Source: Promethearchaeota archaeon
GTDB taxonomy: Archaea > Asgardarchaeota > Lokiarchaeia > Sigyniarchaeales > SOKP01
Assembly (NCBI GenBank): GCA_029838195.1
Contig: JALGVJ010000001.1
Span: 227,107-291,106 of the forward strand
Direction: 5' to 3'
DNA: 64,000 nucleotides
A program made the position numbers and the translations under genes. Positions within the stretch are counted from its first letter, which is position 1; each line of letters opens with the position of its first letter. Positions 2,739-17,861 of the stretch are shown piece after piece. The notes below the pieces were generated by a model, which saw only the letters and a program-made list of their open reading frames with translations, was not told the DNA's origin and ran no database searches.

Positions 2739-3680
2739 GTGAGTAACCCTAGTACAAATCATTTAAGTTCAGTCAGGCACTTGCTAAAAAAATCTTCCAC
2801 ATTTAAGGAGAAAAGTGGCGTAAAAGATAGTATTGGCTCTGAAAATACATTCAAGAAAGAGAAATCAGACTCAGAGTCTTTTGAACATGTTCGGATCAAG
2901 AAGTTTTTAAGGGATAATCTCCCCTTGCACAATGATATAACTGTAATTGCCGAAGAAAAAGTATTTGGTACGAGACGTGCTGATCTTTATTTACTATTAA
3001 AAAACAAAAAGAAAATCACAATTGAGATTCAGCATTCTCCCATGACTTCAAGGGAGTTGCTCAAGCGTACTACTGATTATACGGCTCAAGATATTCACGT
3101 GTTGTGGATTTTTAACGGAACCACTTTCTCAAGATACCCTTTCCTCCAACATGGGATTCAAATGACACGGCTTGAAAAACTCGTCCATCACTTGTACAAT
3201 GGAAGGATCTATTACGTGAATGCTTTAGAAGAAGGACTAGCCACTTCCATTTACCCCCTTCACTTTGCTCCTTTTCAAGAAACTCAAAAATTAATGCATG
3301 GATTAGTATATTTTAAGCGATCTCATCATAAAAAATCGGTAATTCCGGGTAAATTGTCCTCCCTCAAATTACTTACCTTCCGACATGAAAAATTAAAACT
3401 TGCCCGATTTACCGACGAAAATGTGAAAATAACATGCAAAAAAAAGCTCCTTTCTTTTATTAATAACTTCAAACTCGCTGAATTCCAAAAGGTACATGAA
3501 ATTTCACCCTCCTTGACCGATATCGAGAAATTATTGTTCATGATAATGAGAAAATATGAACATGAGTTTGGAATCCATTTAATCTATGATATATTAAAAC
3601 AAATACGCCTCTTGAAGAAAAATGAGTTTTATTTCTTAAAAACCATTTCAAGATATAACCGGAAAAATTTTCAAGGGTGA
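2739..3680 (+). CDS. CoiA-like PD-(D/E)XK nuclease family protein
   Basis: EHVRIK...RRADLYL...IEIQHS...RTTDY...VLWIF motif series typical of CoiA-like nucleases; start codon uncertain. Confidence 0.7.
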   Translation: MSNPSTNHLSSVRHLLKKSSTFKEKSGVKDSIGSENTFKKEKSDSESFEHVRIKKFLRDNLPLHNDITVIAEEKVFGTRRADLYLLLKNKKKITIEIQHSPMTSRELLKRTTDYTAQDIHVLWIFNGTTFSRYPFLQHGIQMTRLEKLVHHLYNGRIYYVNALEEGLATSIYPLHFAPFQETQKLMHGLVYFKRSHHKKSVIPGKLSSLKLLTFRHEKLKLARFTDENVKITCKKKLLSFINNFKLAEFQKVHEISPSLTDIEKLLFMIMRKYEHEFGIHLIYDILKQIRLLKKNEFYFLKTISRYNRKNFQG

Positions 3681-16639: not shown

Positions 16640-16824
16640 ACGTATTTTAAACCGTTAATGAATTAAAATTTTCACATTAATGCATCCTTAATTGAAGTAG
16701 ATAATACTTCATGATTTTAAAAGAGAGGAGATATCAAATTAAAATTTCTCTTACATATTTTAATCCTCTTAGAAAAATTAAGAAATCCTCAAAACCATCA
16801 ATTTTAAAAAAGAACTGTGAGAAG

Positions 16825-16918
16825 CAGGCTCGGAGGGATTTGAACCCTCGATCTTCAGCTCGCTCCACGTTAAAAAGTTTAGGAGGCTGCCGCCTTATCC
16901 AGACTGGGCCACGAGCCT
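16825..16918 (-). tRNA. tRNA-Arg(CCT) with a 19-nt intron at canonical position 37/38 (intron 16861-16879)
   Basis: Minus strand reads AGGCTCG-TG-GCCCAGTCTGGATAAGGC-G-GCAGC-CT-CCT-A-[aactttttaacgtggagcg]-A-GCTGA-AGATC-GAGGG-TTCAAAT-CCCTC-CGAGCCT-G. CTCC/GGAG forms the 4-bp central helix with two 3-nt bulges (BHB). CCA is not encoded. Confidence 0.95.
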
Positions 16919-17314: not shown

Positions 17315-17593
17315 ATGGAAAGGAAGATATACCAGCAAAGACCTCAGAGACCAATTGATTATCTTAAAGATAGCATGAATAAAATAATCCTCATTAAAGT
17401 AAAACGTAACCGACTATTCAAGGGCAAACTTTTAAGTTTCGACGATCACCTGAACCTTTACCTAGAAGGCGCGAGTCAAATTTTCGAATACCAGGATGAG
17501 GATGGAAGCATTCGAGAAGAGCATGAAGAATTGGGGTCAATCGTGATAAGGGGGGATAACGTGATCTTCGTTTCGCTTACCAATACTGATTAG
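17315..17593 (+). CDS. Sm/Lsm-like RNA-binding protein (SmAP)
   Basis: RPIDYL, Sm1 FKGKLLSFDDHLNLYL, Sm2 LGSIVIRGDNVIFVS. Confidence 0.95.
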   Translation: MERKIYQQRPQRPIDYLKDSMNKIILIKVKRNRLFKGKLLSFDDHLNLYLEGASQIFEYQDEDGSIREEHEELGSIVIRGDNVIFVSLTNTD

Positions 17594-17744
17594 ATACAAG
17601 TTTACAGGAAAAAGAGACAATTTTTCAGGAAATAGATTAAGCATTTTCTTTCTGGTAATAAAAAGCGTTAATTTCCTCAAAGGAATGCTTCGCCGCAAAA
17701 ATAGGTGTAAACTTTTTTTCGAGAGCGAACAAAAAGACGATTCG

Positions 17745-17789
17745 ATAATTTTTGTTAGTCTAACAAATACGGATTAAAGACAAGTTTCC
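17745..17789 (+). repeat. Diverged second copy of the Sm gene 3' end (encodes IIFVSLTNTD* plus downstream acaagttt)
   Basis: att ttt gtt agt cta aca aat acg gat taa agacaagttt versus the gene copy atc ttc gtt tcg ctt acc aat act gat tag atacaagttt; offset 184 bp. Confidence 0.85.
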
Positions 17790-17795
17790 ATGAAT

Positions 17796-17861
17796 CATTC
17801 GCGGGGAAAATGTTAAATATAAAATAAAAAGCGCTCTTTTAGTATATTTTCTCCTCGAATG
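17796..17861. other. Long imperfect inverted repeat / hairpin
   Basis: cattcgcggggaaaatgt (17796-17813) pairs with atattttctcctcgaatg (17844-17861) with one mismatch and two G-U pairs. Confidence 0.6.

Follow-up and report, generated by a model that had tools for sequence, protein, structure and literature searches.

How did the end of an Sm/Lsm gene come to be written a second time, a short distance downstream of itself, in largely different codons that keep the same meaning? The question is raised by a metagenome-assembled genome (MAG) of a lokiarchaeial archaeon (4.5 Mb in 94 contigs, 96.6% complete, 7.9% contamination), of which a window of 64,000 nt was analysed. The G+C content around the locus is approximately 32%. 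The gene itself (Table 1) scores 61.5 bits against the LSM profile, for which the curated cut-off is 23.4, and alignment of its product with those of its orthologs places the Sm2 motif RGDN ahead of the β5 strand. All four of its Phe codons are TTC, including the one in the stretch that is duplicated. Orthologs were found in 41 of 41 relatives, and synteny places those of relatives at the same locus.

A methyltransferase gene lies upstream, as does the tRNA gene listed in Table 1, and the order of Sm gene and phosphoesterase gene is kept across the family. The gap between these two genes is 489 nt in the present genome, compared to 372 nt in its only congener (G001) and 122-230 nt in most relatives. 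The only break in this order found within the family occurs in one genus (L055:651-2708; G008:C66), where a putative threonyl-tRNA-synthetase-like gene, so read from its translation, stands between the two.

Table 1. Features of the Sm locus and its surroundings; positions are those of the window.
Feature	Position	Strand	Remarks
tRNA-Arg(CCT), 95 nt	16824-16918	-	presumably intron-bearing; ~400 nt upstream of the Sm gene
Cys-rich ORF, 51 aa	16990-17145	-	beside tRNA-Arg(CCT)
Sm/Lsm gene, intact, 92 aa	17315-17593	+	PF01423 LSM, E=6e-17
Copy 1 (Sm 3′ end, nine codons and TAG)	17564-17593	+	ATC TTC GTT TCG CTT ACC AAT ACT GAT TAG
Post-stop motif, 21 nt, two tandem copies	17592-17612, 17613-17633	+	AGAKACAAKTTTNCAKGAA; repeat family D2
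Spacer between the two homologous stretches	17611-17747	+	no relatives found
30-aa ORF	17685-17777	+	MLRRKNRCKLFFESEQKDDSIIFVSLTNTD; ATG at 17685; ends in copy 2
Copy 2 (vestigial Sm 3′ end, nine codons and TAA)	17748-17777	+	ATT TTT GTT AGT CTA ACA AAT ACG GAT TAA
Post-stop motif, third copy, after copy 2	17776-17796	+	repeat family D2
Calcineurin-like phosphoesterase, 711 aa	18082-20217	+	PF00149; downstream neighbour of the Sm gene

The original prediction, that the 3′ end of the Sm gene recurs 184 nt further on with six of its nine codons and the stop silently changed, is confirmed in the sequence. Both copies encode IFVSLTNTD followed by a stop, identical at 21 of 30 nt and at 9 of 9 amino acids, and start to start they are 184 nt apart, with 154 nt and no genes in between. 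Every change is synonymous, and this includes the switch of a serine codon between TCG and AGT, which amounts to three substitutions in one codon. Within the 4.5-Mb genome, IFVSLTNTD with up to two substitutions is encoded at these two sites only. The stretch ACAAGTTT, noticed beyond the stop of both copies, is indeed common to them, and the homology in fact continues for 17 nt past the stop (14 of 17 nt matching), which a repeat finder reports as a 47-nt repeat of 74% identity; its longest exact match, of 8 nt, is ACAAGTTT itself. The 21-nt post-stop motif, of which this stretch forms part, has four exact matches in the whole genome, three of them at the Sm locus.

Homology between the two copies is demonstrable over 47-60 nt only. 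Comparison of the gene with the spacer, as DNA and as protein, gave no supported homology, and the same was true of the regions that follow the two stops, and of the region upstream of the Sm gene when set against the spacer (z <= 1.4 throughout). Some colinear bits are visible by eye without reaching significance, namely AATAAAAAGCG and a TAATAA..AAAG arrangement ahead of both ATGs. On its 5′ side, copy 2 is preceded by KDDSI in place of RGDNV, with similarity at the DNA level no better than chance. DSIIF is a legitimate Sm2 variant in one genus (g21), and KD, which stands just upstream of copy 2 where the invariant RG would be expected, is encoded by AAA and GAC, each a single G-to-A step from AGA and GGC as read from the sequence; KD could equally lie beyond the boundary of homology. 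Copy 2 may therefore be homologous back to 17739 (DSI) or to 17733 (KD, possibly a decayed RG), and in the latter case the remnant may reach 15 codons with two decay mutations. Its last 10 codons, stop included, bear no disabling change. Neither a Pfam nor an Sm-profile match was obtained beyond the last 12 residues, and copy 2 is thus a partial homolog of the adjoining intact gene, on the same strand, that lacks a complete domain.

A plain tandem duplication of 184 nt, taking in the 3′ end and its flank, with the second unit then left to decay neutrally, would be one way to such an arrangement. Weak colinear matches at spacings of 166 and 187 nt (repeat families D3 and D4) are consistent with this origin, as is the recurrence of micro- and mini-duplications at gene ends in the present genome and at the Sm locus of one relative (L124), but the extended homology is not significant, the serine codon switch demands its three substitutions, and the neutral model itself is rejected by simulation. 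Upon placing nine random substitutions on copy 1, none of 400,000 simulations retained the peptide and the stop; with six substitutions both were retained with a probability of about 4e-5, an outcome that was alike with or without an A+T-biased substitution spectrum. Because nine random substitutions never left the peptide intact, the two copies, which are homologous, diverged while both were coding. The simulations thereby uphold the claim that purely synonymous divergence reflects selection on both copies at the protein level, and leave duplication followed by neutral decay as a very unlikely origin. A caution is nevertheless in order, in that the silent-only divergence of a short duplicate indicates, taken alone, neither a mobile element nor a functional small gene.

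Gene duplication is reported to be frequent in this part of the archaeal tree: Asgard archaea, including Lokiarchaeia, display high and often tandem duplication rates in a phylogenomic study (PMC13247210). The Sm locus offers examples of its own. The 3′ ends and flanks of approximately 95 distinct Sm orthologs were listed, and each locus was searched with its own Sm protein, the gene being masked. In MAG TM1M.263 (JBHLRJ010000109.1; L128:2995-3536), two intact Sm/Lsm genes stand in tandem only 17 nt apart, each matching PF01423 (1.2e-16 and 1.6e-17). The pair has in common a lineage-specific ILRGFDEHLNLFLE stretch and uses different codons at 25 of 62 identical residues, and the second gene is a paralog that has diverged, its identity to every ortholog being 72-74%. 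A further relative (L092:3488-3561, the same as L008; G022:C178) carries a decayed and internally deleted pseudo-Sm gene about 210 nt downstream of its Sm gene, which reads NSLFKGRL*GFDEYL and then, in another frame, VVRDNNLI*, that is, an Sm1 motif with an in-frame TAA and an Sm2 motif, the loop between them deleted and with G-to-A decay. A vestigial Sm 3′ end, KIYKGDNVIFV, is found at L078:3279-3323 from 2 nt after the Sm stop (KGDNVIFV from about 14 nt); it differs from the gene by four silent changes, then breaks with a 1-nt insertion that shifts the frame, and is trailed by two copies of TGGCTAGAAAT. Finally, the Sm gene of L124 (stop at 3280-3282) has its final 16 nt, CATAGAGGGGTCCTAA, perfectly duplicated in tandem directly after the stop. 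As read from their sequences, these relatives present a decay series at the Sm site, from intact pair to pseudo-Sm, frameshifted vestige and microduplication.

Against this background, copy 2 and its post-stop motif are best explained as the vestige of a second, once-functional copy of the Sm gene, most likely a tandem paralog, a reading to which a probability of roughly 0.55 is assigned. The whole Sm gene and its 3′ flank would have been duplicated in tandem in the lineage leading to this species, and both copies would have remained functional until their silent sites were saturated, the β5 strand, the tail and the 3′ motif being held constant all the while. One or more deletions would then have removed most of the downstream copy, sparing only its final 10-15 codons together with the stop and the 3′ motif, recently enough that the 10 codons of the remnant carry no disabling change. 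We infer the order of these events, as well as an origin of the second copy in place rather than by import; the deletions are themselves deduced, because no remnant of Sm coding sequence or of a promoter can be recognised in the spacer. The remnant is probably without function now, and is most likely a known kind of object, the ordinary trace of gene duplication and loss.

Several observations are gathered under this single account. Silent-only divergence beyond the reach of neutral decay is what two coding copies would produce, homology would be confined to 47-60 nt since deletion would have removed the rest, and the extra length of the intergenic region and the similar objects in relatives are accounted for as well. 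Short 3′-end vestiges of other genes in the same genome (those for a TFB, a MoxR-like ATPase and an amidohydrolase) also speak for it. The likeness to the decaying tandem paralogs described in the phylogenomic study (PMC13247210) is close, in that copy 2 adjoins an intact parent in the same orientation with partial homology to it, and the relatives L128, L092 and L078 show intact and broken stages at this locus. The difference is one of degree, as here just 10-15 codons survive, undamaged and yet with silent sites saturated with respect to the parent, a combination that points to a lengthy period of function, ended by a sharp and recent deletion, rather than to slow decay by point mutation.

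The paralog reading also has its costs. Ten undamaged codons beside flanks that cannot be aligned demand that the deletion was both recent and sharp. Conservation of the post-stop motif, at 14 of 17 nt, exceeds that of the silent sites, and the constraint needed for this is left unexplained by the reading. The spacer frame leading into copy 2 is free of stops, and the reading must put this down either to chance or to an internal deletion that preserved both the frame and the start of the second copy; for such a deletion neither the Sm profile nor the comparison of upstream region and spacer gave statistical support. Lastly, the genus as represented by the congener G001 contains no second Sm copy or other vestige.

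The distribution of the duplicate bears on when it arose. Among 161 genomes of the class it was found in the present genome only, a degenerate pattern for IFVSLTNTD* having matched none of the other 160, and a comparable duplicate was absent from the first 30 loci of relatives and from 12 metagenome loci that were searched. A weak look-alike match after the Sm gene of another genome (G007; L013) was dismissed as chance, since it is absent from the congeneric G018. The Sm proteins of relatives end in NLA-type tails, and the SLTNTD tail is shared only with a sister lineage known as protein, P0002, from four NCBI MAG records (MHA1688662.1, MHA1725858.1, MHA1762518.1 and MHA1844098.1), whose Sm protein is 91% identical and has the same last 14 residues. 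The Sm protein of the present genome is itself recorded, as P0001, on four contigs, three other assemblies holding the identical protein. As P0002 has the tail and the remaining 160 genomes of the class lack it, the second copy would have arisen within a small clade. Six of the eight positions at which the two Sm proteins differ lie in or beside the Sm1 motif, which reads LFKGKLLSFDD here and LFRGRLGGFDE in P0002, the latter keeping to the family consensus; this clustering suggests that the surviving copy has changed faster. Identities among Sm proteins were also considered as a test of transfer and discarded, the protein being too short and too conserved to inform.

The existence of this sister lineage with the same tail also lends some substance to another account, in which a sister-lineage Sm gene with approximately 150 nt of its downstream flank would have recombined into the genome, by a homologous join on the left and, at codon -10 to -13 of the resident gene, an illegitimate one on the right, leaving the resident 3′ end behind as copy 2. 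Such an event would yield exactly the observed structure, and would account for the purely silent differences with no need for copy 2 to be under selection. The AGT of copy 2 lies one step from the AAY (Asn) codons that relatives have at that position and TCG does not, which fits copy 2 as the resident end. Homology-facilitated illegitimate recombination, described in naturally transformable bacteria, leaves the same product, a foreign allele and its flank joined inside the gene end with a diverged duplicate left over; we know of no demonstration of the process in Asgard archaea, and the present case is unlike it in that no donor sequence was found. Donor DNA was sought in the genomes of the class and of the family and in scans of metagenomes and genome collections, the scans returning no relative closer than about 77-85%. 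Between sequences of only about 70-80% identity, recombination should be a rare event. The relatives, for their part, document tandem duplicates at this site and not replacements. Allele replacement by a divergent homolog, one of the readings offered from the sequence at the outset, thus keeps some standing as the main rival, if an unlikely one; no donor DNA supports it, and a vestigial tandem paralog is the simpler reading because relatives show intact and decaying tandem Sm copies in the same place.

The other reading offered at the outset was that the locus is the scar, or a minimal non-autonomous form, of an element targeting the Sm/Lsm gene. As weighed here, an integrative element would have inserted at the Sm 3′ end, bringing a replacement for it, and the body of the element would later have been deleted. 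The precedent is the icd gene of Escherichia coli, whose 3′ end is replaced by one that the prophage e14 (or phage 21) brings along, the original end persisting as a pseudogene fragment. The likeness is real, as both cases show a directly repeated gene 3′ end, with differences that are mainly silent, and a functional gene that stays intact, and the 21-nt motif repeated beside both copies could in principle be a recombinase site. Unlike the icd/e14 case, the 154 nt between the two copies here contain no element, there is no integrase in the vicinity, the longest identical core measures 8 nt, and relatives show no insertion polymorphism. Only two matches to PF00589 were found genome-wide, on contigs C86 and C56, and the contig that bears the Sm gene has no integrase. 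There is no island at the Sm site in the loci of relatives examined, which comprise the approximately 95 distinct Sm gene ends, and no viral contig carries an Sm relative; two viral matches to the IFVSLTNTD* pattern lie antisense within an RtcB-like gene, with Thr encoded in place of Ser. The spacer, moreover, has no relatives in the genome or in 134 genomes of the family. The element hypothesis is not borne out by these searches, and a scar of this kind appears highly improbable.

Given that the genome is a MAG in many contigs with some contamination, an artefact of assembly must be weighed as well. A chimera of two strains would, however, switch between them at homologous positions without making a duplication. 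What makes an artefact unlikely is that copy 2 is not preceded by Sm coding sequence, and that an assembler would have had at most 8 identical nt in a row on which to join the copies; this explanation is accordingly given only a very small chance.

The spacer was considered as an object in its own right. It has no other copy in the genome, gave matches at the level of noise only against the 134 family genomes, and contains only weak inverted repeats, so a mobile or repeated element was rejected. A structured RNA was rejected also, since the spacer matches nothing in Rfam and its folding is not distinguished from that of shuffled sequence (plus strand, z = -0.53; minus strand, z = 0.04). A hidden Markov model built from 73 orthologs scored it at chance, which speaks against decayed Sm coding, and an intron of the bulge-helix-bulge (BHB) type was discounted in that splicing between the copies would yield the same protein and no supporting structure is present.

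What the spacer does possess is an open reading frame. The frame of copy 2 is free of stops from 17565 to 17777, an occurrence with a probability of about 0.0095 by shuffling, and both this frame and the 30-aa ORF within it are present as originally described, the ORF with a TATA-like box, AATAAAAA, about 25 nt upstream. Copy 2 might accordingly be kept by selection because it is translated, either as the 30-aa peptide, which bears the Sm β5 strand and tail, or by way of a +1 shift at GAT-TAG-A that would add 61 residues to the Sm protein and end in a second β5 strand. The open frame, the start codon with its box, and the retention of peptide, stop and 3′ motif together are in keeping with translation. 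The 30-aa ORF, however, yielded no homologs and is absent from G001 and from the 134 genomes of the family, the 70-aa frame that runs through the spacer has no Pfam match and no homolog among 1.84 billion representative proteins, no known frameshift signal is present, and the comparable vestiges of L078 and L092 are visibly broken. Of the suggestion that the second copy can be read as a 30-aa ORF, then, the open frame has proved real, conservation was not found in the relatives examined, and there is only a slim chance that translation is what has kept copy 2.

A more specific version of this idea is that the remnant has been co-opted. The peptide, with its β5 strand and tail, might pair with the free β4 edge of an Sm subunit and so modulate assembly of the ring, or a long +1-shift isoform of the Sm protein might exist with a second β5 strand. 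If true, this would explain the stop-free frame of the spacer, the intact peptide and stop, and the conservation of the 3′ motif beyond that of silent sites, and the three local copies of the 3′ motif would constitute a shared regulatory site. Co-option in either form is viewed as quite improbable.

Gene ends are repeated elsewhere in this genome too. At L058:1900-2210 (G000:C23), a TFB (TFIIB-like) gene ends at 1932, and 278 nt further on the sequence ATG TTG AAA TGT ATT AGT TAT CAT ATT AAT TAA repeats its last 9 codons and stop with three silent C-to-T differences; the flanks beyond the two stops may be homologous as well (z=2.3). A MoxR-like AAA ATPase gene (L059; G000:C35, minus strand, stop at 144385-144387) ends in VLDKVKFPI*, and VLDKVRFPI* is encoded 129 nt beyond it; apart from this one K-to-R replacement, the two stretches differ by four silent changes. 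About 8 kb before the start of the window (L060; G000:C1:218850-218975), an amidohydrolase gene has its end repeated at a distance of 76 nt, almost unchanged in DNA (KR*/KK*) and around an insert of 31 nt. A genome-wide scan also returned peptide repeats at intervals of approximately 75 nt on G000:C48 and G000:C79, which are putative CRISPR arrays, the former adjoining putative cas-type genes as judged from their translations.

Taken with the intact pair of L128 and the broken copies of L092 and L078, the remnant indicates that the Sm locus has repeatedly tried a second copy, a tendency that is of some interest given that eukaryotes expanded Sm/Lsm into large families of paralogs. The value of the remnant itself lies in its being a clean and datable trace, in Lokiarchaeia, of the duplication and loss of a core RNA-chaperone gene.
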